From Escherichia phage 121Q, in sequence record NC_025447.1: DNA of 64,000 nt; one strand, given 5' to 3'. Under the pieces are notes generated by a model. That model was given only the letters and a program-made list of their open reading frames with translations. It was not told the DNA's origin and did no database searches. Below, in pieces: positions 7,942 through 40,772 of this stretch (its first letter is position 1; each line of letters starts with the position of its first letter). The position numbers and the translations under genes are program-made.

Positions 7942-8116
7942 AACATTTGACGAGTGGTATCAAATGCATTACAATATAAATGCAGGTGATGTATACTTCT
8001 TTAAGTTGGAGTTGTTTTTATTGTTAAATGATCCCGAATCGTACTATAACAATATCATTTATTGTGATGATTTTAGTACATATTTTAGTATTGCAGTTAT
8101 GGATATAAAAAGATGA
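7883..8116 (+). CDS. hypothetical small protein, possibly related to MTHEEW family (start uncertain)
   Basis: ORF track; contains TFDEWYQMHY resembling the MTHEEW N-termini; real start may be GTG near 7932. Confidence 0.3.
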   Translation: MQYCYLKLWIFIKVNTVQPKTFDEWYQMHYNINAGDVYFFKLELFLLLNDPESYYNNIIYCDDFSTYFSIAVMDIKR

Positions 8117-8477
8117 CACATGAAGAATGGTTGGTACAAACTGAACACTTGGTTATAGCAAGTATGAAATTTTGAAATGAACAGTTGATGCACTTGGTAA
8201 GTAATAAAGCGTATTACGATGCATTCTTTGGGAAAAATGCTACAATTGAGGTTCATGTGTATTATGCTATTACATTTGGTGATTAATTTATGAAATATGA
8301 ACATTTAAAATACTATGCTGATAGAATAAATTATTATCCCTTTTATATAAGATTAGATGCATTAATATCAAAAAAAGTTGTATATAAACGTTCTCAAGCT
8401 GATCTAACCAATATAGCATTCATTCTTGCAGTACTGTCTAAAATGGGATAATATTAAATTAAGATGGATATTAAGAG

Positions 8478-8654
8478 ATGACACATGAAGAATGGTTAGA
8501 TGAACTAAAATTCAAACATAATCCTTTTGGTTTTGGTATACGCCAAGGTCATTATGATGTGTTAAAAGATAAACAACTTTTCAAATCATTTGTACTTGAT
8601 GCGGATAGCAACCACTGGTTCATCTATGAGCTTGCAATTAGAGACAAAAAATAG
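8478..8654 (+). CDS. small protein, MTHEEW family
   Basis: ATG-initiated 58-codon ORF starting MTHEEWLDEL...; below the track size cut-off. Confidence 0.4.
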   Translation: MTHEEWLDELKFKHNPFGFGIRQGHYDVLKDKQLFKSFVLDADSNHWFIYELAIRDKK

Positions 8655-8659
8655 TAAGA

Positions 8660-8995
<336 letters not shown>

Positions 8996-8996
8996 A

Positions 8997-9179
8997 ATGA
9001 CACACGAAGAATGGATGTACAAACAGCATAAAGAACATGACTGCTTTGGGAATGGTATTCGTCAGGTACATTATGATATTCTCAAAGATATAAATTTATT
9101 CATAAAATATGTTTTGGATGAAAATAAACATTGGTTTATATATGAGATTGCATATAGAAACTCAAATAAACAAAAATAA
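8997..9179 (+). CDS. small protein, MTHEEW family
   Basis: Product MTHEEWMYKQ...; track ORF 8979-9179 trimmed to the family ATG. Confidence 0.4.
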   Translation: MTHEEWMYKQHKEHDCFGNGIRQVHYDILKDINLFIKYVLDENKHWFIYEIAYRNSNKQK

Positions 9180-9193
9180 ATAAGGAATATATT

Positions 9194-9412
9194 ATGGAAA
9201 CAACGTTATTTGAAGTTATTCAAGCATTAAAAACTGGTGATGACATTCAAGTATTGCTACATGGTTATCGTTTAAAAGGCACTGTGGTTTTAGTTAATGA
9301 CACAACGTTAGTTATTGCCGAAACAAATCCATATGATAGTAATCAAGTTGCTAATATCCATATTGATATTAAAAGCATTATTGGTGTAGGCGTAAATAAA
9401 AATCAAGAATAA
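9194..9412 (+). CDS. hypothetical protein
   Basis: ORF track; AAGGAA RBS-like upstream. Confidence 0.4.
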   Translation: METTLFEVIQALKTGDDIQVLLHGYRLKGTVVLVNDTTLVIAETNPYDSNQVANIHIDIKSIIGVGVNKNQE

Positions 9413-9490
9413 CAAATGTTTTTGAAAAAAACCAGAAAATGAATGATTTTTTTGGACAACTCAAAAATATATGATATAATAATTAGTACA

Positions 9491-9580
<90 letters not shown>

Positions 9581-9584
9581 ATAT

Positions 9585-9680
<96 letters not shown>

Positions 9681-9689
9681 CTAAAAACC

Positions 9690-9854
9690 ATGACGCATGA
9701 AGAATGGATGAATGATATTAATTTTAGATATTCGGGTATCGGTAGTTGGCGAAAATATCATTGGGAAATTATTTCAGACCCAGCAGAATACGATAAACTT
9801 ATAAACCATGAAGTATATCCGTGGTTCTTTATTGAAATAATGGTACGAATATGA
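9690..9854 (+). CDS. small protein, MTHEEW family
   Basis: 54-codon ORF MTHEEWMNDINFRYSGIGSW...; stop overlaps next ATG (ATGA). Confidence 0.45.
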   Translation: MTHEEWMNDINFRYSGIGSWRKYHWEIISDPAEYDKLINHEVYPWFFIEIMVRI

Positions 9855-10011
9855 CGCATGAAGAATGGATGAATGACATTAATTTTAGATATTCGGGTAT
9901 CGGTAAATGGCTAAAGTATCATTGGGAATTCATTTCAGAGCCACATATGTATGATAAACTTATCAACGATCCAGCATATGAAATGTACTTAATTGAACTA
10001 CTGGTACGAAT

Positions 10012-10015
<4 letters not shown>
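9851..10015 (+). CDS. small protein, MTHEEW family
   Basis: 54-codon ORF MTHEEWMNDINFRYSGIGKW...; ATGA overlaps at both ends. Confidence 0.45.
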
Positions 10016-10595
<580 letters not shown>

Positions 10596-10599
<4 letters not shown>

Positions 10600-10627
10600 C
10601 TAAATAATTCAGTACTGAGGATATTAA
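10596..10627 (+). promoter_or_regulatory. sigma70-like promoter variant (TTGACT ... TATTAAT)
   Basis: Same TTGACTAAATAxTTCAGTACTG core as neighbouring promoters. Confidence 0.4.
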
Positions 10628-10656
10628 TATGTTTAAAGATGAACGTCCAGATTTGT

Positions 10657-10694
<38 letters not shown>

Positions 10695-10699
10695 GAATT

Positions 10700-11040
10700 C
10701 CACAATCAGACGTATATGGTGTAAGCTACGTCGATGCAATCCAGAACAAGATCTCTGGTACTCTAGGAAGTGGTGAATGTTAACCTAGACGGGTTTGATA
10801 ATTGGACGATAGGCAATTATTACTTGACTAGCAGGTTGAAACTAGAGGTGACAGTCCTTCACCAAACTGGAAAACCGGATGGACTTTTATTTAAAAGGGT
10901 AAGGCGTGGAAATATGTTTACAGAAGTTGCTTTTAGTAGCCTGTACGCCCCACGACAAGGTAGCCGAAAGGTAAGTTAAAACGGGTGGTTATAAAGCTGA
11001 ATTAACAGCGGCGTTTAAAAGCGTCACCATCCATTTTTTT
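10700..11040 (+). ncRNA. candidate structured non-coding RNA (unclassified)
   Basis: About 340 nt with no ORF, GC-richer than flanks, just downstream of a consensus promoter; GNRA-type hairpins (e.g. CCGAAAGG); ends in a T-run. Confidence 0.25.
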
Positions 11041-11056
11041 AATTAAAGTTGGCGAT

Positions 11057-11809
<753 letters not shown>

Positions 11810-11826
11810 TTCACATGATATAGGGA

Positions 11827-12088
<262 letters not shown>

Positions 12089-12096
12089 GAATCTTC

Positions 12097-12498
12097 ATGA
12101 AAAAGAATGACTTGATCAAAATGCTCCAAGAGATTGACGGCAATCCAGAGATTGTTATTTGGAATGGCTATGTCGATGATTATATGAACATCGAAAAAGG
12201 CTTGACTAAAATCACACTAGTCAAAGAAACTGAACAGTTCCTTCTGAACGCATTAGAGCATGAATGGTGCGAACGTAACAAGACATTCGACATTCCAGAA
12301 GACCAACGAACTAAGATTGCAGAACGTGCTAAAGAACTTCATAAGAAGCGTGAATACGATTTCCAGAACCCATATGTTACTGAAGAAGAATTCAATCGCT
12401 GGTACGGAAAAAGAAAGTTGACAAAGTATGTTCTTTCACCTAAACTACGTGGTAAGACTTCTCTTGGTGTATTCAATGCATCTGACTTAGATTACTAA
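12097..12498 (+). CDS. hypothetical protein (paralog of 13138-13353)
   Basis: ORF track; N-terminus MKKNDLIKMLQEIDGNPEIVIW resembles MKAKDLISILQKNPEADILIH. Confidence 0.45.
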   Translation: MKKNDLIKMLQEIDGNPEIVIWNGYVDDYMNIEKGLTKITLVKETEQFLLNALEHEWCERNKTFDIPEDQRTKIAERAKELHKKREYDFQNPYVTEEEFNRWYGKRKLTKYVLSPKLRGKTSLGVFNASDLDY

Positions 12499-12508
12499 GG
12501 AAAACAAA

Positions 12509-12829
12509 ATGATGTGGTATTCAAATGTACCGTGTGAACCTAAATATATTCAGATTTCACATAATGCACTGAAAGCGTTCTGTGATAATTGCAGTACTAA
12601 AGATTATCACTTCGAAGACTTCAGAACGTTGATTTATGACCATCACTGTCAGCCAGCAACCAAAGATGGTATGTTTGTAATTGAACAATTCTTTCATGGT
12701 AAGGTATTGCAAATTGTTGCTGATTATCTGAAAGCAATGGGATATATTATCAAAGATGATTATCTTGATTTAGAAGGTGAATGCATTGTTGATGGTTATG
12801 ATGGTGTACTGATGAATTGGACATGGTGA
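12509..12829 (+). CDS. hypothetical protein
   Basis: ORF track. Confidence 0.45.
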   Translation: MMWYSNVPCEPKYIQISHNALKAFCDNCSTKDYHFEDFRTLIYDHHCQPATKDGMFVIEQFFHGKVLQIVADYLKAMGYIIKDDYLDLEGECIVDGYDGVLMNWTW

Positions 12830-12833
12830 TGAA

Positions 12834-13136
12834 ATGATTGCAACAATGATGATTGTACTTATCCCAATAGTACTAGTAATTCTAGTGACTTCATATGGTG
12901 CAACCACAACTATTGAAGATCTAAAAACACATTACGCTATCGTCTTTAGTGAAGCACATGAAGACTTTGGTACAGTACTGACCGATAAGACTTATATTGC
13001 AACTAAATGTAAGTACTACCGATTCTGGGAACGTTCTGACAAATACCACTACAGAGATGAGAAAGGCGTGAATCAGTACTTAGACGTACTGGATGCATTC
13101 TTGAAACCTTACTATACAGTAACCGAGGTAAAATAA
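12834..13136 (+). CDS. hypothetical protein with N-terminal transmembrane segment
   Basis: ORF track; hydrophobic N-terminus. Confidence 0.4.
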   Translation: MIATMMIVLIPIVLVILVTSYGATTTIEDLKTHYAIVFSEAHEDFGTVLTDKTYIATKCKYYRFWERSDKYHYRDEKGVNQYLDVLDAFLKPYYTVTEVK

Positions 13137-13137
13137 C

Positions 13138-13353
13138 GTGAAAGCTAAAGATTTGATTTCAATTTTACAGAAAAACCCAGAAGCAGATATTCTTATTCAT
13201 GCTTCGCCTTATGATGACTATGCGATTGGTAGTTGCGAAACTGCTCATTCATATCAAGCAGGGGACACCGCTGTTGAAGAGTCTGGTGAAGATTTTTCGG
13301 AATCATTTGATGAAGATGGAAAACTCTTAGTACCAGTCATCATTCTCTCATAA
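13138..13353 (+). CDS. hypothetical protein (paralog of 12097-12498)
   Basis: ORF track; likely GTG start. Confidence 0.4.
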   Translation: MKAKDLISILQKNPEADILIHASPYDDYAIGSCETAHSYQAGDTAVEESGEDFSESFDEDGKLLVPVIILS

Positions 13354-13360
13354 AAGAACG

Positions 13361-13393
<33 letters not shown>

Positions 13394-13442
13394 CAGGGGA
13401 GGTTGTAATTCCCGATTCAGTAGCTTTTTAAGCTGTTCCGTG

Positions 13443-13543
<101 letters not shown>

Positions 13544-13562
13544 AGAGGTACTTCGAGTATGC

Positions 13563-13629
<67 letters not shown>

Positions 13630-13704
13630 TAATTGACATAACTTTGAATGGAGTGTATTATGTTCCAAGAAGAAAACTGGGGTTTTTAACATAACGGGGA
13701 ATGT

Positions 13705-13750
<46 letters not shown>

Positions 13751-13755
13751 GTGCT

Positions 13756-13794
<39 letters not shown>

Positions 13795-13795
13795 A

Positions 13796-13837
<42 letters not shown>

Positions 13838-13838
13838 G

Positions 13839-13889
<51 letters not shown>

Positions 13890-13895
13890 TAATTA

Positions 13896-13968
13896 GCCGA
13901 CTTAGCTCAGTAGGTAGAGCGTTCCTCTTGTAAGGGAAATGTCACCAGTTCAATTCCGGTAGTCGGCA
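13896..13968 (+). tRNA. tRNA-Thr (anticodon TGT) candidate
   Basis: Acceptor GCCGACT/AGTCGGC, D-arm GCTC-AGTAGGTAG-AGCG, anticodon loop CTTGTAA, T-loop TTCAATT; one T-stem mismatch. Confidence 0.65.
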
Positions 13969-13980
13969 CAAAATAAAGGT

Positions 13981-18484: not shown

Positions 18485-19273
18485 ATGAGCAACATTTTCT
18501 TCAAAACTATTTCTTTCAAAAAAGCATCTTACTCCTACGCCTACGTTGATGGTAAAGTGCTTAATATTGTACTGGATGGTGTTGATGTACCAGTTGAATT
18601 TAAAACACATGAAGAAGCAGTTGAAGGTGCTAAAGAATTGAATTCAATTCTTAATGGTGAAGTAAGTCAAAAACAAAATGTAAAATCTGATTTAGATGTA
18701 CTTTTGGAAAAAATCAAAACTGGTGAAGTATTAGAAATTTTAGACAACTGTAATGAAAAACTTCGTAATGTAGTTAATAATGTTCGTGACCAGATTCAAG
18801 AAAAAGCACTAGAGCAAGCATTCAAACATGTATCCAAGAATGCTGAATCTCGTATTGATGGTATGGTTAAAAATCTTGATGATGTACTATCCCATCTCTT
18901 TACTAAAGAATACGAACAAGAAGTTGAAGAAGAACCAGTAAAAGAAACCAAAAAAGAAAAACGTAGCTTTGGTTCAGGTGATGATGTGTTTGGCTTTACG
19001 AATGTCCGAACAAGTGCAGATGAACCAAAAGAAATTAGTGAGATGCTCATTGGTGACATGACAACTAAGCAGCTTCGTAATGAAATTGACAAGTTTGTAA
19101 CTAGTTGTATCAAATCAGAACGTGCACAAAGTATGTTTAAAAGCATTAGTGAGAACTTTGGTCCAGAAGCAACTGAGCAGGCACTAACTGCATTTAAAGA
19201 ATTGATTTATAATGTAGCCATTAGCAATCCAGATAAAACACTTGAAGAAGTTCTACGTGACAATTTCAAATAA
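18485..19273 (+). CDS. hypothetical protein
   Basis: ATG at 18485 after AAGGAG RBS; track ORF 18461-19273. Confidence 0.5.
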   Translation: MSNIFFKTISFKKASYSYAYVDGKVLNIVLDGVDVPVEFKTHEEAVEGAKELNSILNGEVSQKQNVKSDLDVLLEKIKTGEVLEILDNCNEKLRNVVNNVRDQIQEKALEQAFKHVSKNAESRIDGMVKNLDDVLSHLFTKEYEQEVEEEPVKETKKEKRSFGSGDDVFGFTNVRTSADEPKEISEMLIGDMTTKQLRNEIDKFVTSCIKSERAQSMFKSISENFGPEATEQALTAFKELIYNVAISNPDKTLEEVLRDNFK

Positions 19274-19286
19274 TTAGATAAAATTA

Positions 19287-19315
19287 AAGCCACTACAATG
19301 TAGTGGCTTTTTTTA
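19287..19315. terminator. bidirectional rho-independent terminator
   Basis: Hairpin GCCACTAC/GTAGTGGC flanked by A-run upstream and T-run downstream; sits between convergent genes. Confidence 0.6.
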
Positions 19316-20470
19316 TTATGCGTTGTAACCAACTATTACGACTGAGCAGTCAAGCGGTTCTACTACTTTTAAAATCACATTATCATCTTCATCCACTTGT
19401 ATTTCGCTATGAACTACATGATTGTCTGAAGAATATAATTGAACTTGTGGTAGTGCTTTACCATGTTCAGTTACTGGAACTGAGATAGAGTACATAGAGT
19501 CTTCACCGAGAACCCACTCACTTAAAGTATATTCTTTATGGAAAGGAGTAGTATGCAGTGTTTTTCCGATTATACTCAAAGAAACAGGTAAATTATCAGT
19601 TTGATACACAGTAATATTACCTTCTGCGTCTACAGAAAGATCTACACCAACTTGATATAAGTCACCACTGTATGCTTGAAGTGCTAAGTACTGTCCACGA
19701 TCATGAACATCAAATGGAACAACCGCAGAAAATACACCTTCCGAAACAGGTTCAAATTGGGATAGAAGAACTGATGTAACAAAATCAATATCCTCACCAC
19801 TTTCAAGAACATCAAATTCCACCACTTTAGTGTTATAATATGGAGAAGTGAGCGTAGCAGTACCTTTCCCTGATTGTGTGATAACATCAACTGGAATTGT
19901 AAATGCATCATTAACAAATTGGGTAGTAAAGTATTCTGTCCCGTCTGGTAATACGATTGTTATTACCATACCGTTAGTATCAATTTCTGAACCAGTGTTG
20001 AATAATTTACCACTAATTGAGTCATTACCAACAAATACTGGTGAAATGAGAATATTATCTATATCACGATCTATAATACCACATTCAGGTGTATACATAT
20101 GATACAAGGTTTGTGAACTACCTAAAATTGTTTTATGTAGCATGAATTTATATACAAATCCAGTATCAGTTTCTTGTGGCTCTTCGGAATATCCACGAAC
20201 AAAGAAACAATTTTTATTAATTTCACTTAATAGTTGGTCATTAGTTTTATTGTAATTTAATAGATAACCTTTATTATCTTTAGTTGTTATTTGTACTTTA
20301 CGATATATTATATTAGTTCTGGGATCAACTAAATCATATAATCTATGGCTTCTTTGGCGATAGATTCTAATATTTTTTAGTCTAGTTCCATCGTTGAGGA
20401 TTGCACCATCAACAACATAACCACATTCACCAAACTTATAGCGTCCAGCCGCAGCAATTGACCTTGACAT
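19316..20470 (-). CDS. hypothetical protein (384 aa), lone minus-strand gene
   Basis: Long ORF; GGAGGG RBS 5 nt upstream of ATG; AATAAATA late-promoter-like motif upstream on minus strand. Confidence 0.55.
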   Translation of the reverse strand: MSRSIAAAGRYKFGECGYVVDGAILNDGTRLKNIRIYRQRSHRLYDLVDPRTNIIYRKVQITTKDNKGYLLNYNKTNDQLLSEINKNCFFVRGYSEEPQETDTGFVYKFMLHKTILGSSQTLYHMYTPECGIIDRDIDNILISPVFVGNDSISGKLFNTGSEIDTNGMVITIVLPDGTEYFTTQFVNDAFTIPVDVITQSGKGTATLTSPYYNTKVVEFDVLESGEDIDFVTSVLLSQFEPVSEGVFSAVVPFDVHDRGQYLALQAYSGDLYQVGVDLSVDAEGNITVYQTDNLPVSLSIIGKTLHTTPFHKEYTLSEWVLGEDSMYSISVPVTEHGKALPQVQLYSSDNHVVHSEIQVDEDDNVILKVVEPLDCSVVIVGYNA

Positions 20471-20586
20471 TTATCCCTCCATTGGTATAATTATTATAAC
20501 GTATTTATTATGCATATCCAAAAAATGAGCTTGACTGGTGTATGATTTGGTGTTATCATGTAGTGAATGAATAATGAGGTGTTTTT

Positions 20587-21171
20587 ATGAATGTTATTGA
20601 TAATAGATTAGTACTGAAAAATGGAAAAATGACTGTTAAGTTATATAAAGATGAAGCAGATTCTTTCATGGCAAAAGCGATTGAAAAATCAGAACGATAT
20701 AAACTTTTGGCTCCAGCCAGTAAATCGCCATATGGTTTTAATCATGCACATAGTCATTTTGTTGGTATGGTATGTGAGCACGCATCTTTAGTACTTTTTA
20801 ATGAAATTGAAAACAATACTGGTATTAAACTTAATATCGATCCAGCATTCCAAAATGAAGCACGTGACGGTGAATGTGATATTAAGGTAAACAACCTTCG
20901 TATTGAAGTAAAAGGTATCAAGTATAAATCATGGACTGACTTTGGACCATGTGTTAGTACTCGACAGTTAAAAAATATCCAGAAAAAAGCTGACGTAATA
21001 CTATGGGTATTGTATAATGAGAAAAAACAAGAGTTCACGTTTGAGGGATTCAACTATGTAAAAGATATTAGTTCTATCCCAGTTATCCTCACTGGTGTAC
21101 CAGGGCGACCAATGATTGAAAATCACCCAGTACTCGGTATTATGAAACCACTACAGGAGTTACCATTGTGA
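20587..21171 (+). CDS. hypothetical protein
   Basis: ORF track; TTGACT promoter-like element near 20529-20560. Confidence 0.5.
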   Translation: MNVIDNRLVLKNGKMTVKLYKDEADSFMAKAIEKSERYKLLAPASKSPYGFNHAHSHFVGMVCEHASLVLFNEIENNTGIKLNIDPAFQNEARDGECDIKVNNLRIEVKGIKYKSWTDFGPCVSTRQLKNIQKKADVILWVLYNEKKQEFTFEGFNYVKDISSIPVILTGVPGRPMIENHPVLGIMKPLQELPL

Positions 21172-25266: not shown

Positions 25267-26232
25267 GTGAAAAAGCTTGATTTAAATACAATTGCCGAAG
25301 AAGTTCTGGATGAATGTTTTTCTAATGAAGAAGTCAACACACTAGAAGCCTTAGATTTCGTTGAAGATAAAGATGAAAATGAAGGTAAAGTACAAAGCAG
25401 TTTCAAATATAATATTACACTTAAGCGACCACCAAATGTTTCCAATGAAGATCTAATTCGTGATATTCAAGCTGGTATCAATGTAAAGAAAAACACTGAA
25501 CTGTTAGTTCGTTACAATTATGGACTTATTATTGATGTAGCAAGTAAATGTACTTGTTATATCCCATTTGAAGATAAGATTTCATATGGTGTTGAGGGGT
25601 TCATGAGAGCACTAAAAACCTTTGATCTTAATAAGAATGTGAAGTTCATTACCTATGCTTCTTCTAGTATTTACATGACAGTTTATAACGAAAGTTCTGA
25701 CGCTAACTATATGGTACACTTCCCACGTTATATGAGTGTTCATAAGATCAAAGTAAAAAGATTCTGTCAGGAATATATGCGTAAACATGGTGTTCGCCCA
25801 ACTCCTGAAATAATCTCAGAGGGTACTGGGATTGAGATTCAGCATGTTAATAACTGTTTGTTATTTCAAAGCGAATACACTTCTCTGGATGCACCATTAG
25901 ACGGTGTTACCGATGGTACACTAGGTGACATTATTCATTCACCTGCTTCTGATTTTAACCTCAATGTTGATAGTATTCGTGCACCTTTACGTTATGCTAT
26001 CAATGAACTGACTAACGAATTGAGTACTAAAGAACGTGAGATTATCCAGCGTGTTCATGGTCTAGGTGAATATGAACCTGAAACGCTTCGTGAGATTGCT
26101 GATAATGGTTTTGTTGATGATAATGGAAAATATGTTAAATCCCGTTCATCAATACATCGAAAGTACAGTGAAGCTATGCAAAAGCTTAAGAAGCTAGTAC
26201 TTGCAAAAGGGTACGAATACGAAGATTTCTAA
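25267..26232 (+). CDS. sigma-70 family RNA polymerase sigma factor-like protein
   Basis: GTG start after AGGAG; region-2-like LVRYNYGLIIDVASK...GVEGFMRALKTFD...KFITYASSSIY and region-4-like C-terminus; motif match by eye only. Confidence 0.55.
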   Translation: MKKLDLNTIAEEVLDECFSNEEVNTLEALDFVEDKDENEGKVQSSFKYNITLKRPPNVSNEDLIRDIQAGINVKKNTELLVRYNYGLIIDVASKCTCYIPFEDKISYGVEGFMRALKTFDLNKNVKFITYASSSIYMTVYNESSDANYMVHFPRYMSVHKIKVKRFCQEYMRKHGVRPTPEIISEGTGIEIQHVNNCLLFQSEYTSLDAPLDGVTDGTLGDIIHSPASDFNLNVDSIRAPLRYAINELTNELSTKEREIIQRVHGLGEYEPETLREIADNGFVDDNGKYVKSRSSIHRKYSEAMQKLKKLVLAKGYEYEDF

Positions 26233-37430: not shown

Positions 37431-37545
37431 TTTAACTTTGGGACAACCATTCTTATTATGATATAATGTTTTATGTCATTCGATATAAATGACAACGGAA
37501 CTATAAATATTATAGTAAAATTTATCTCTTATAGGAGTTATAAAA

Positions 37546-37929
37546 ATGGTTGATAAATGGAATAAGAAAGATCCATCACATGATGTTGATATTTCTGGTC
37601 TAGACAATGCACATAAGCACAAGTATCTAGATTCACTAGGTCTTCTAAAACCAGACCAAAGTCTTGCACATGATCGTCCATCCCGTGAAAAAGCATTTAG
37701 CCTAGAATCACTAGGTCATGAGCTTAATCGTGTGTTTGAGGATCACCCAATCTATGTACGTGATATTATCGAGAAACTTAAAGTAACTCCTAAAGAGCAC
37801 TTTAAAGCAACTGTACACTCTGCATTCCGTGCATTACATGAATCTCTAAAGAAAACTCACAATCTTCGTAAAATTCATGATGAAATCGTGAATGCAATCG
37901 AAAGTGAAAAACATAAGTTCAAGAAGTAA
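37546..37929 (+). CDS. hypothetical protein (shares motifs with 38175-39686)
   Basis: ORF track; YLDSLGLLKPDQ and VTPKEHFKATVHSAFRAL resemble segments of the downstream 503-aa protein. Confidence 0.5.
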   Translation: MVDKWNKKDPSHDVDISGLDNAHKHKYLDSLGLLKPDQSLAHDRPSREKAFSLESLGHELNRVFEDHPIYVRDIIEKLKVTPKEHFKATVHSAFRALHESLKKTHNLRKIHDEIVNAIESEKHKFKK

Positions 37930-38150: not shown

Positions 38151-38174
38151 ATAAATATAGACATAGAGAAAAAA

Positions 38175-39686
38175 ATGAAATCTATGGAGAGAAATCAAAT
38201 GCCAAGTAATTTTACTGATAAAAATGGTGGTAACATGGCTGGTCACTCTGATAAATGGAGTGAACGCAACCGCCGTCCAAATAGTTATCAAGCAGGTCAA
38301 GGTTCACGTGGGTCACGTAACCAAGGAACTGGTCTAGCTGGTAAAGCAAACGCAGAAGCAGGTGAAGTTAAGAGTACTGAGAACATGACTGAGCTAGAAA
38401 AGCTACGTTATGTTAACTCATTAGGTCTTCTTAACGCAACACAAAAACAACGCCTTGCTGATATGGAACGTGCTGAGAAAGAACAAGCAGTTCCTAAAGA
38501 AGAACCAAAAGCAGAAGTACCTAAAGCTGCTAACCCTGTTAAAGAGTTATCAGATAACTTAGGTAAGATCTTTGCTAACAAACCACAGTTGATTCAGGGT
38601 ATTGTCAAAGCACTACAGGCAGTTCCTAAAGAAGAACTCAAAGGTAAAGCACAAGCTGTACTTGATGTAATGAAAGGTAATAAGAGCACTGAACCAACTG
38701 AAGTATTCAGTACTATCATGCGTGCACTTGAAGGTACACACAAAGAAGATTCCAAAGAACCTGAACAGGGTGAAGCAAGTCTTGATGGTATTCTTAAAAC
38801 TTTTGATAATATTGGTAAAGCAGACCGTGCTAATGCCCAGCAAGTCAAGAATGTACTGGCTAAACTTGAAAACCGTTTAGAAGGTAAAGACGATAAGGTT
38901 AAGCTCGTATCAGATGCAGTTAACAGTGCACTTAAATCTTATGTACAAGGTGAGAAAAGTCGCTTCGTAACAGCTATGGATGCTGCATTCAACACTATGA
39001 AAAAGTATGAAGCAGAACATGGTGAGAAGGTAACACCAGATGGTTATCTAAAGCGTGCAGATGAAGAGGGTGCAGTTGAACAGAAAGATGTTGAGCCTGA
39101 GCAAGAAGAAATACCTGATACCGTTGATATGGATGGATACATTCATCGTCCTGAGATGGAAGAGTTTGGGTCAGATAAAGAAGGTTTTGAACATGCAATG
39201 GCAGTATATAAAGCATTAGTTAAAAATCCAGATTATGCTAACCGTTTTGTTGACGAGTTTGATAGTGCATGGAATAACTACAAAGAGAAAGGTTATGACT
39301 TCCCTGCTGAAGCTGCATTCTTTGAACTTGGTAAACTATTAGCTAAACATGGAATTGACGTTGGTTCATCTGATTCCGAAGGTATGGAAGAAGAACATCT
39401 TGAAATGACCGATAAATCAATTCATGAACTTCAAAAGCTAATGATGTGGATATCCGAGATTGGCAAAAAAGCAGGTGCTGATCGTAAAAGTATCAACAAA
39501 AACATTAGTTGGATTAAAGATAATGTTGGTAACAATGCTCGTAAACTTCAAAAGGCGTGGGCTGATTTAGTAAATGGTGCAGATGATGTTGACATTGAAT
39601 CACCAGAAGCATATGAGTATGCACTAACTACACTTGATAACTCATTCAAAGAGTACGACAGTGGTGTTGGAAAGGATAAAAAATAA
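38175..39686 (+). CDS. hypothetical acidic protein (503 aa) with internal repeats
   Basis: Long ORF flanked by terminator cassettes; repeated NSLGLL and AVPKEE/VPKEELK segments. Confidence 0.55.
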   Translation: MKSMERNQMPSNFTDKNGGNMAGHSDKWSERNRRPNSYQAGQGSRGSRNQGTGLAGKANAEAGEVKSTENMTELEKLRYVNSLGLLNATQKQRLADMERAEKEQAVPKEEPKAEVPKAANPVKELSDNLGKIFANKPQLIQGIVKALQAVPKEELKGKAQAVLDVMKGNKSTEPTEVFSTIMRALEGTHKEDSKEPEQGEASLDGILKTFDNIGKADRANAQQVKNVLAKLENRLEGKDDKVKLVSDAVNSALKSYVQGEKSRFVTAMDAAFNTMKKYEAEHGEKVTPDGYLKRADEEGAVEQKDVEPEQEEIPDTVDMDGYIHRPEMEEFGSDKEGFEHAMAVYKALVKNPDYANRFVDEFDSAWNNYKEKGYDFPAEAAFFELGKLLAKHGIDVGSSDSEGMEEEHLEMTDKSIHELQKLMMWISEIGKKAGADRKSINKNISWIKDNVGNNARKLQKAWADLVNGADDVDIESPEAYEYALTTLDNSFKEYDSGVGKDKK

Positions 39687-40019: not shown

Positions 40020-40343
40020 ATGTGCAATGACATTGAAAGTACTAAAACAATTTATTATAATAATGAACGTAATTATCGTTTTCATAATTTAACCACAAAT
40101 AAAAGTTTACTATTTTACAATTGTAAAGAAGTAAAACTCCCACCCGACAATAGCTGTAACCCGACGAACCCATCACCAGCACAATGTAATACTCAATCTG
40201 AACCTGATAACAATAAAAAAGACAAAGATAAAGATAAAAAAGAAGACAAAAAACCTTTAAAAGATAAAAAGAAAGATAAAAAACCTAATCCGTTTAAAAA
40301 TAATAAACCAGCACAACCCGATATGACGTGTAAAATAAAATAA
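40020..40343 (+). CDS. hypothetical Lys/Asp-rich protein
   Basis: ORF track; KDKDKDKKEDKK low-complexity tract. Confidence 0.35.
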   Translation: MCNDIESTKTIYYNNERNYRFHNLTTNKSLLFYNCKEVKLPPDNSCNPTNPSPAQCNTQSEPDNNKKDKDKDKKEDKKPLKDKKKDKKPNPFKNNKPAQPDMTCKIK

Positions 40344-40352
40344 GGATATATA

Positions 40353-40772
40353 ATGAAAAAGATTTTTTTAAGTATTATTTTAGTACTTTTTAGTTTTAAT
40401 GTATATGCAGCAGATGCTAAACAGGTTGCAAATACAGTAAAAGATGTTATAGTAGATAATGCTCCTACATTAGAGGAAATTGGGGTAAAAACTTGTGATA
40501 TTGTAATATATAATTTAGTTAATGATGAACGAGTTATGTTGAATACGTATGAACAAGTAGTCCCATTGGTTGAATCTGGTGATGCTTTTAGCTTTACATA
40601 TAAAGTTAAATTAACAGGAGGGGTTGAAGTTAATCTTGACATTGATACCGCTTCAGTACTAAAAGATAAACTAGGATATGTGTTCAATCGTATTCGTGAA
40701 GAAGGTCATCTTAAGTATGTTTATGAAAGTAAAATACTAAAACGTGCAATAGTTATAGAAAACTGTAAATGA
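40353..40772 (+). CDS. hypothetical secreted protein (signal peptide)
   Basis: N-terminus MKKIFLSIILVLFSFNVYAA. Confidence 0.45.
   Translation: MKKIFLSIILVLFSFNVYAADAKQVANTVKDVIVDNAPTLEEIGVKTCDIVIYNLVNDERVMLNTYEQVVPLVESGDAFSFTYKVKLTGGVEVNLDIDTASVLKDKLGYVFNRIREEGHLKYVYESKILKRAIVIENCK

Follow-up and report, generated by a model that had tools for sequence, protein, structure and literature searches.

A lone reversed gene in the early block of Escherichia phage 121Q: a virion-associated protein with immunoglobulin-like domains and a putative late promoter

Why does a single gene run against all of its neighbors inside a long block of co-directional genes? This question is raised by a 384-amino-acid open reading frame (ORF) on the minus strand of a 64,000-nucleotide (nt) stretch of the genome of Escherichia phage 121Q (NC_025447.1), the whole of which is referred to here as the window. 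An initial annotation, made from the DNA letters, had outlined this lone gene at 19287-20580 and had proposed that it might be a late gene or a moron-type insertion; the ORF itself was confirmed at 19316-20470, and the wider range takes in its flanks. Our analysis suggests that it is an ancestral late structural gene of Rak2-like jumbo phages that encodes a virion accessory protein, an explanation that we consider probable when taken as a whole.

A virion-associated product conserved in place

The gene and the two parts of its product are:

19316-20470, minus strand: coding sequence for 384 amino acids with an ATG start, encoding a virion-associated protein (ORF call, PHROG 10468 and published mass spectrometry)
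20087-20470, minus strand: conserved N-terminal module, codons 1-128 (about 125 amino acids)
19319-20068, minus strand: three tandem immunoglobulin (Ig)-like domains, codons 135-384 (approximately 135-225, 226-305 and 306-384; AlphaFold2 [AF2] model and Foldseek)

Homology searches identified a full-length match of the protein to PHROG 10468, 'virion structural protein' (E = 7.6e-184; residues 1-383 aligned to profile positions 1-384). The sequence is 100% identical in phages PBECO4 (gp368, YP_009150682, labeled virion structural protein in RefSeq), slurp01 and G17, and 99.5-100% identical across Asteriusvirus. Its counterpart in phage phAPEC6 is gp077, which was detected in purified particles by electrospray ionization tandem mass spectrometry (42.88 kDa, 10 unique peptides, 37.8% coverage; PMC7247149). 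The orthologue of Pectobacterium phage CBB, CBB_496, is 38% identical to the 121Q protein and was likewise found in virions (4 peptides, 17.5% coverage; PMC5259590). Two independent virion detections across a distance of 38% identity are persuasive support for virion association. The gp077, PBECO4 gp368, CBB_496 and GAP32_475 genes, together with the 121Q, slurp01 and G17 orthologues, represent the same gene in the same position and reversed orientation, and published records on it give no function past 'virion/structural protein'.

The question of whether the gene was acquired recently was addressed by comparison with relatives. By tblastn, it is present in 59 phage records, all from Rak2-like jumbo phages, whose hosts include Escherichia, Salmonella, Erwinia, Yersinia, Pectobacterium, Cronobacter, Serratia, Xanthomonas and Klebsiella. 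We inspected the loci of PBECO4, G17, fEgEco12, three metagenome or assembly contigs (53%, 42% and 38% identity), CBB and fHe-Yen9-04. In each of them the gene is the lone opposite-strand member of a long co-directional run, with a gene of approximately 190 amino acids divergent from it and one of approximately 270 amino acids convergent with it. CBB and fHe-Yen9-04 carry one additional ORF between the gene and its convergent neighbor, labeled in CBB as a methyltransferase. Where the loci reach far enough, a gene for an RpoD-like sigma factor lies a few kb away.

These comparisons bear directly on the moron hypothesis, in which a self-contained promoter-gene-terminator cassette would have been inserted recently and horizontally into the early block. 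The gene does have its own promoter-like motif and terminator and runs against all of its neighbors, as such a cassette would. However, every relative that we examined, at protein identities ranging from 99% to 31-38%, has it in the same place and reversed, and all 59 records with a homologue share this position, orientation and pair of neighbors, so that presence among syntenic relatives is not patchy. The G+C content of the gene (0.31-0.35) is typical of the window (0.339), and the gene encodes part of the virion rather than a factor that modifies the host. Taking into account the conserved position and orientation and the unremarkable G+C content, sequence comparison refutes the insertion half of the initial proposal, to which we assign an extremely low probability. 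A separate observation concerns Salmonella phage SD-6_S16 (OR699182.1, 176021-177114), in which the gene is split into two pieces, a 242-amino-acid product (P0009) and a second ORF, through either a frameshift or a sequencing error. If the split is real, the gene would be dispensable for plaque formation.

The early block, the promoters and the predicted timing of expression

The 3-kb region around the gene is 99.8% identical to Escherichia phage vB_Eco_slurp01 and 98.9-99.5% identical to phAPEC6, G17, Sharanji, PBECO4 and other Asteriusvirus jumbo coliphages (approximately 350 kb); a second coliphage group shows approximately 78% identity over the 3-kb region compared. By these similarities, the source phage is classed as an Asteriusvirus jumbo coliphage (Rak2-like). 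A greedy ORF map of the window places plus-strand genes from approximately 1 to 53 kb, and the 384-amino-acid ORF is the sole credible minus-strand gene in this interval. A further minus-strand ORF at 40193-40642 was taken as spurious, as it overlies the plus-strand genes annotated as gp031c and gp032c in phAPEC6.

Near-consensus sigma70 promoters, defined as matching at least 11 of 12 positions, are distributed very unevenly: 35 lie on the plus strand (11 of them perfect), all within 81-48,729, and a single one lies on the minus strand, compared with approximately 2.4 per strand in shuffled sequence. This extreme strand bias is the signature by which we recognize the putative early block. The block also holds a gene for an RpoD-like sigma factor (25267-26232) and six tRNA genes, a content that fits the early region described for CBB (PMC5259590). 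The tRNA genes lie at 8682-13969 (Gly, two Ser, Met, Asn and Thr). Within this cluster the motif TTGACTAAATAGTTCAGTACTGA, which contains a -35-like TTGACT, occurs at 10187, 10666 and 11425, with a variant at 10596 (span 10187-11450, plus strand); the repeats probably serve as promoter units for the tRNA genes and small ORFs of this region.

The signals that surround the reversed gene are:

19286-19310, both strands: bidirectional intrinsic terminator hairpin between the convergent genes (scan and RNA folding)
20475-20480, minus strand: Shine-Dalgarno sequence GGAGGG, 4 nt before the ATG (read from the sequence)
20502-20509, minus strand: T4-type late-promoter motif AATAAATA, with the invariant core TAAATA at 20502-20507 (aligned upstream regions)
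20464-20491, plus strand: sigma70-type promoter TTGACA-16-TGnTATAAT, 12/12 match (promoter scan)
20531-20559, plus strand: second rightward sigma70-type promoter TTGACT-17-TGnTATCAT, for ORF 20587-21171 (10/12, extended -10)

The late-type motif, noted initially as one mismatch away from the T4 octamer, was seen at 20509->20502, with its TAAATA core 31 nt upstream of the ATG. We aligned the upstream regions of nine lineages, including two distant paralogues from other large phages. No block other than TAAATA is invariant; it stands 25-40 nt before the ATG and the remainder has diverged. The gene is preceded by a -10-type element 20-50 nt upstream with no conserved -35, as is a T4-type late gene. 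For CBB and GAP32, a late motif consisting of ATAAATA followed by A/T-rich sequence has been proposed, and a gp55-like sigma factor was also noted in these phages (PMC5259590). In phAPEC6, which was used for this question as its sigma gene falls outside the window (99.5% identity over the 3-kb region compared), the annotated late sigma gp237c matches PHROG 234, 'late sigma transcription factor' (E = 8.4e-18).

A single TAAATA in an upstream stretch of approximately 60 nt is weakly unlikely by chance (roughly 0.02-0.06), and its distribution at larger scale is more informative. The hexamer is depleted approximately threefold in the window (47 copies, compared with 135 +/- 11.6 in shuffles), and ATAAATA is depleted too (9 copies, 45 +/- 6.4 expected); 200 kb of phAPEC6 contain 141 copies of TAAATA, with approximately 388 expected. 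Of these 141, 53 fall at -70 to -12 from an annotated start on the same strand, a zone that makes up 3.4% of the strand-space tested (4.8 expected, p ~ 1e-40). TAAATA precedes 30 of the 51 phAPEC6 genes detected by mass spectrometry and 22 of the 181 others (odds ratio 10.3, Fisher p = 5e-11). Many of the motif-bearing genes among these others are plainly late, such as those for the large terminase and neighbors of head and baseplate genes, and many of the detected genes that have no motif are internal to operons. A check of the flanks for a longer consensus revealed only that A is favored at -1 (17/29) and that weak A/T signals follow the motif. Taken together, the invariance of TAAATA and its genome-wide tie to virion genes lie far beyond chance.

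Three of the nine ATAAATA copies in the window precede genes of the virion proteome, namely the reversed gene, 37546-37929 (gp037c) and 38175-39686 (gp035c). In the orthologues of phAPEC6 gp037c (37503-37929, plus strand) and gp035c (38151-39686, plus strand), TATAAATAT stands 17-36 nt before the starts, which suggests that the early block also contains late promoters that run in its own direction. Outside this block, the minus strand at 53089-63797 carries an array of genes with RCC1 repeats ('DNA condensation proteins'), several of which are in the phAPEC6 virion proteome. Most members of the array are preceded by a near-identical cassette consisting of a hairpin (GCCAGTAC...GTACTGGC), a T-run and then TATTAAATATAGTATAATGAATAAAGGAGGG, which amounts to a repeated unit of terminator, late promoter and ribosome-binding site (RBS).

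Alternatively, a sigma70-type promoter on the strand of the gene, TGGATA-16-TATAAT (20520->20493), could drive its expression early, in the middle period or over the whole infection, with TAAATA being incidental. This is the best sigma70 match on that strand (10/12), and host sigma70 or the phage's own RpoD-like sigma (25267-26232) could use it. Its -10, a perfect TATAAT (20498->20493), lies 3 nt downstream of the late motif, and a TATAAT-like element follows TAAATA in several relatives. However, the -35 is weak and not conserved: on the strand of the gene we found no match of at least 9/12 in three relatives (L006, L007 and L008), and only 9/12 in CBB and fHe-Yen9-04. The invariant element of the alignment is TAAATA, not TATAAT, and it is TAAATA that tracks virion genes genome-wide; the window as a whole, as described above, has one near-consensus promoter on the minus strand versus 35 on the plus strand. 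Strong sigma70 promoters, one to three in number, were present upstream of the gene on the opposite strand in every relative. We therefore placed TGGATA-16-TATAAT below the late motif as the promoter of the gene, and consider it quite improbable that expression is driven mainly in this way.

Some points do weigh against a late gene and should be set beside this evidence. The TATAAT immediately next to the late motif makes some sigma70-dependent expression of the gene conceivable, weak as its -35 TGGATA is. In addition, conservation does not extend to the first two bases of the T4 octamer, and the genome in which this 6-mer occurs is AT-rich. Searching the literature for promoters or transcriptomes of Asteriusvirus yielded nothing usable, the Sharanji paper containing no RNA data, so the late timing is a prediction from sequence. 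On that footing, late expression is well supported. The late half of the initial proposal stands, given the virion-associated product, TAAATA and a strand that has no conserved sigma70 promoter.

The hairpin between the convergent genes, which had been described as a perfect two-way terminator, was called on both strands. Its 11-bp stem includes an 8-bp G+C-rich core and closes on a 3-nt loop, and its RNA folds at -18.2 kcal/mol (plus) and -16.6 kcal/mol (minus), with z ~ -6 and none of 200 shuffles folding as well. Its U-tract is a clean TTTTTTT on the plus strand and is interrupted on the minus strand (TTTAATTTT). All relatives have a hairpin at the equivalent position, with different stem sequences, and the phage G17 record annotates it as a terminator. 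The GGAGGG reported initially is present at 20480->20475, and relatives have a purine-rich RBS in the same place.

The overlap between the 5' region of the gene and a divergent promoter was also borne out. The plus-strand promoter at 20464-20491 covers both the start codon and the RBS: its TTGACA -35 is formed by the first codons of the reversed gene (ATG TCA AG) and its spacer covers the RBS. This promoter is present in fEgEco12 and is weaker, degenerate or absent in more distant relatives. The -35 and -10 of the second rightward promoter (20531-20559) are conserved at the equivalent position in relatives.

These elements suggest the following expression logic, in which we infer the late timing, the sigma factor used and the start site. 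Rightward early transcription would stop at the hairpin (19286-19310) and resume at the sigma70-type promoters at 20464-20491 and 20531-20559. The reversed gene would be read leftward from a T4-type late promoter that has no -35, with its core at 20507->20502, probably used by host RNA polymerase together with the phage gp55-like late sigma and with a start at approximately 20494-20497. Translation would proceed from the strong GGAGGG site, and the leftward transcript would end at the same hairpin. In this arrangement, the reversed orientation and the two-way terminator would keep early read-through from expressing the gene, and early polymerase bound to the consensus promoter, which overlaps the late one, would cover that promoter as well. 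As the predicted starts are approximately 20498 rightward and 20496 leftward, polymerase at one promoter would exclude the other.

The two neighbors of the gene are:

18485-19273, plus strand: convergent gene, orthologue of phAPEC6 gp078c and CBB_494 (PHROG 14991, 'virion structural protein')
20587-21171, plus strand: divergent early-block gene, 194 amino acids, labeled 'putative endonuclease' in fEgEco12 (PHROG 16175, unknown function)

The product of the convergent gene was also detected in virions of phAPEC6 (gp078c; 4 peptides, 21.4% coverage; PMC7247149) and CBB (CBB_494; 1 peptide; PMC5259590). No TAAATA lies upstream of this gene, which is positioned at the end of an early operon, and gp078c appears to be an acidic coiled-coil protein.

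The N-terminal module, its paralogues and the place of the protein on the particle

An AF2 model of the protein, built from a 14-sequence alignment (mean predicted local distance difference test score [pLDDT] of 80), predicts a small beta-rich N-terminal domain (residues 18-93) and three beta-sandwich domains in residues 135-384 (pLDDT of approximately 85-95). Foldseek searches with the full model returned generic tandem-Ig matches only, including biofilm and streptococcal adhesins, filamin and S-layer domains (E = 2e-5 to 1e-3), and among viral models the orthologues and Ig-bearing proteins of other jumbo phages. A Pfam scan of the full protein gave sub-threshold matches only (Ig_NUP210_4th, E = 0.018), and the Ig domains are closest to CarboxypepD_reg/NUP210-type profiles. 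Sequence searches of the PDB with the full protein and with a 37-sequence profile of the N-terminal module gave only chance matches, and tblastn of the protein against the window identified no paralogue there.

The N-terminal module has no relative in Pfam or the PDB and defines a family of its own. When its first 140 residues were used as a phmmer query against 1.84 billion representatives, the protein matched 72 others of 102-1551 amino acids, all of them at their N-terminus. The remainder of these proteins consists of arrays of Big_2, Big_1 or Invasin_D3 domains, with 1-7 Big_2 or invasin-type domains per family member. Of the isolated phages, only Rak2-like jumbo phages have the module, with one to three copies per genome, often labeled 'major tail protein' or 'structural protein with Ig domain'.

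One member of the family is a stand-alone module:

phAPEC6 MK817115.1, 260690-261067 (L017:4191-4568), plus strand: gp347, stand-alone N-terminal module gene (sequence comparison)

This 125-amino-acid protein (14.1 kDa) is 33% identical to the 121Q protein (E = 1e-15) and ranks first by coverage in the phAPEC6 virion table (75.2%, 8 peptides; PMC7247149). The presence of the module alone in virions suggests that it associates with the particle independently of Ig domains. The gp347 gene is itself a lone reversed gene, located between PhoH/NUDIX/Sir2 genes and ClpP, and it has a bidirectional terminator hairpin. Its start has no TAAATA within 70 nt, and a perfect TATAAATA is found approximately 190 nt upstream. 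Together with the Ig paralogues of CBB, GAP32, BF and RaK2, gp347 shares with the 121Q protein an N-terminal module of approximately 120 amino acids, and each is lone, reversed, virion-associated and flanked by a two-way terminator. They differ in that gp347 has no Ig domains at all, whereas the CBB, GAP32, BF and RaK2 paralogues have Big_2 arrays instead of the three domains of the 121Q protein and occupy the PhoH-NUDIX-Sir2 ... ClpP locus.

Positional counterparts of gp347 were also observed in two contigs from uncultured large phages, L014 (ENA ERZ27235505 k119_279171, 8001-13074) and L016 (8001-8906). They carry 2-5 Big_2 domains, are reversed relative to a NAMPT/NUDIX/Sir2/ClpP metabolic block and have TAAATA 35-40 nt upstream; L014 holds two more plus-strand genes with TAAATA nearby, one of them with Big_2 domains. 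The design of a lone reversed gene with a two-way hairpin thus recurs at gp347 and in both contigs.

Parts of the Ig region are found in a second context. Residues 225-338 are 30% identical to an unannotated 298-amino-acid ORF of phAPEC6 (188038-188934, plus strand) that belongs to the same PHROG 10468. The N-terminus of this ORF, "MAVFSNLEGTM...", is common to the adjacent 713-amino-acid tailspike-like ORF (PHROG 6117, colanic acid degradation). Both ORFs are unannotated and lie in the gap between gp253 and gp256 (MK817115.1, 185880-188934, corresponding to L009:35880-38934, plus strand), with the shared N-terminus MAVFSN(F/L)EGTM. The 121Q protein has a different N-terminal module in place of this Rak2-like tail fiber and tailspike adaptor (MAVFSN.EGTM...), which serves for docking on the fiber network. 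The reuse of Ig domains 2-3 behind a tail-fiber adaptor argues that they face outward.

Based on these data, the N-terminal module would dock the protein on the virion, and the three-Ig rod would project from the surface as a short decoration or adhesin arm, as in T4 Hoc. Cryo-electron microscopy of phAPEC6 and 121Q has revealed a capsid decoration layer, a protein or fiber at each hexamer center, twelve elongated decorations at the collar and at the distal tail, and long hairs, all left with no protein assigned. We estimate that a three-Ig arm would be approximately 10-12 nm long. The hairs of CBB measure 119 nm (PMC5259590), and an arm of that estimated length would be too short for such hairs and compatible with the other external densities. 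It is rather likely that the protein is a surface decoration or adhesin arm; the attachment site may be the capsid, collar or sheath, and a capsid location specifically is possible although somewhat doubtful.

Here too there are points on the other side. AF2 confidence in the full-length model is low at residues 1-17 and 94-134, though these are highly conserved; Ig-like folds are generic, and the adhesin or binding role is a prediction only. There is no structural homologue that would place the N-terminal module on a capsid or tail. Moreover, the phAPEC6 virion list includes non-structural proteins (thymidylate synthase, a RecA-like protein and SSB; PMC7247149), so that presence in it is by itself no proof of a structural role. 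The protein might accordingly be virion-associated and yet not external, as an internal head or ejected protein, a bound assembly factor or a co-purifying contaminant, and it may be added that the convergent gp078c, acidic and coiled-coil-like, is also virion-associated and that no homologue fixes the attachment site. However, independent detections come from two phages that share 38% identity in this protein, phage proteins that face outward are usually built as tandem Ig arrays following a conserved N-terminal module, and domains 2-3 are shared with the tailspike-adaptor paralogue that adjoins the colanic-acid-degradation ORF. We consider a non-external protein to be quite unlikely, and an exposed arm remains our preferred reading.

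The gene had already been catalogued and its product detected in virions by mass spectrometry, and the late motif had been described for sister genera. Our analysis adds the invariance of TAAATA and a quantitative link between this motif and virion genes in an Asteriusvirus, together with an uncharacterized family of N-terminal modules, the gp077/gp347 paralogue pair, the domain architecture and the promoter analysis. In practical terms, strand inversion combined with TAAATA flags late virion genes hidden in the long early blocks of Rak2-like jumbo phages, and gp077 and gp347 are concrete candidates for the decoration and fiber densities on 121Q and phAPEC6 particles. Beyond annotation the finding has little importance; should the Ig arm turn out to bind glycans of host or mucosal origin, it could bear on host range and on the engineering of therapeutic coliphages.

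Comparison with T4 Hoc and T4 late genes

For the protein, a close comparison is offered by T4 Hoc and other phage surface proteins with Ig domains (Fraser et al., 2006, as cited in PMC5259590). Like Hoc, the 121Q product is a non-enzymatic, virion-associated protein of approximately 40 kDa, for which the AF2 model and Foldseek matches predict tandem Ig-like domains plus one separate, non-Ig attachment domain. The attachment domain of Hoc is C-terminal, whereas the module of the 121Q protein is N-terminal. Searches identified no Hoc-related match in Pfam or PHROG and no PDB sequence match, with no direct pairwise comparison to Hoc being made. The particles of 121Q and phAPEC6 do have a hexamer-center protein that awaits assignment, and nothing ties it to this gene.

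It could be speculated that gp347 (bare) and gp077 (Ig-armed) together form the capsid decoration layer and the hexamer-center fibers, as a Soc/Hoc-like pair derived from a single module that in other genera would carry Ig arrays of varying length. In this reading, which is tentative and, in our estimation, rather unlikely, the N-terminal module would be a new docking domain underlying the capsid decorations of these phages.

With regard to expression, late genes in T4-type genomes typically lie on the strand opposite to the early genes. T4 late genes are transcribed from gp55-dependent TATAAATA promoters (Geiduschek and Kassavetis, 2010, as cited in PMC5259590), and no homologues of gp33 or gp45 were reported for CBB (PMC5259590). 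The reversed gene differs from them in that only the last six bases of the octamer are conserved in its lineage (here AATAAATA). It resembles them in its -10-type A/T motif ending in TAAATA, the lack of a conserved -35 and a phage-encoded gp55-like sigma, and, like T4 late genes, it encodes a virion protein and is oriented opposite to the early block.

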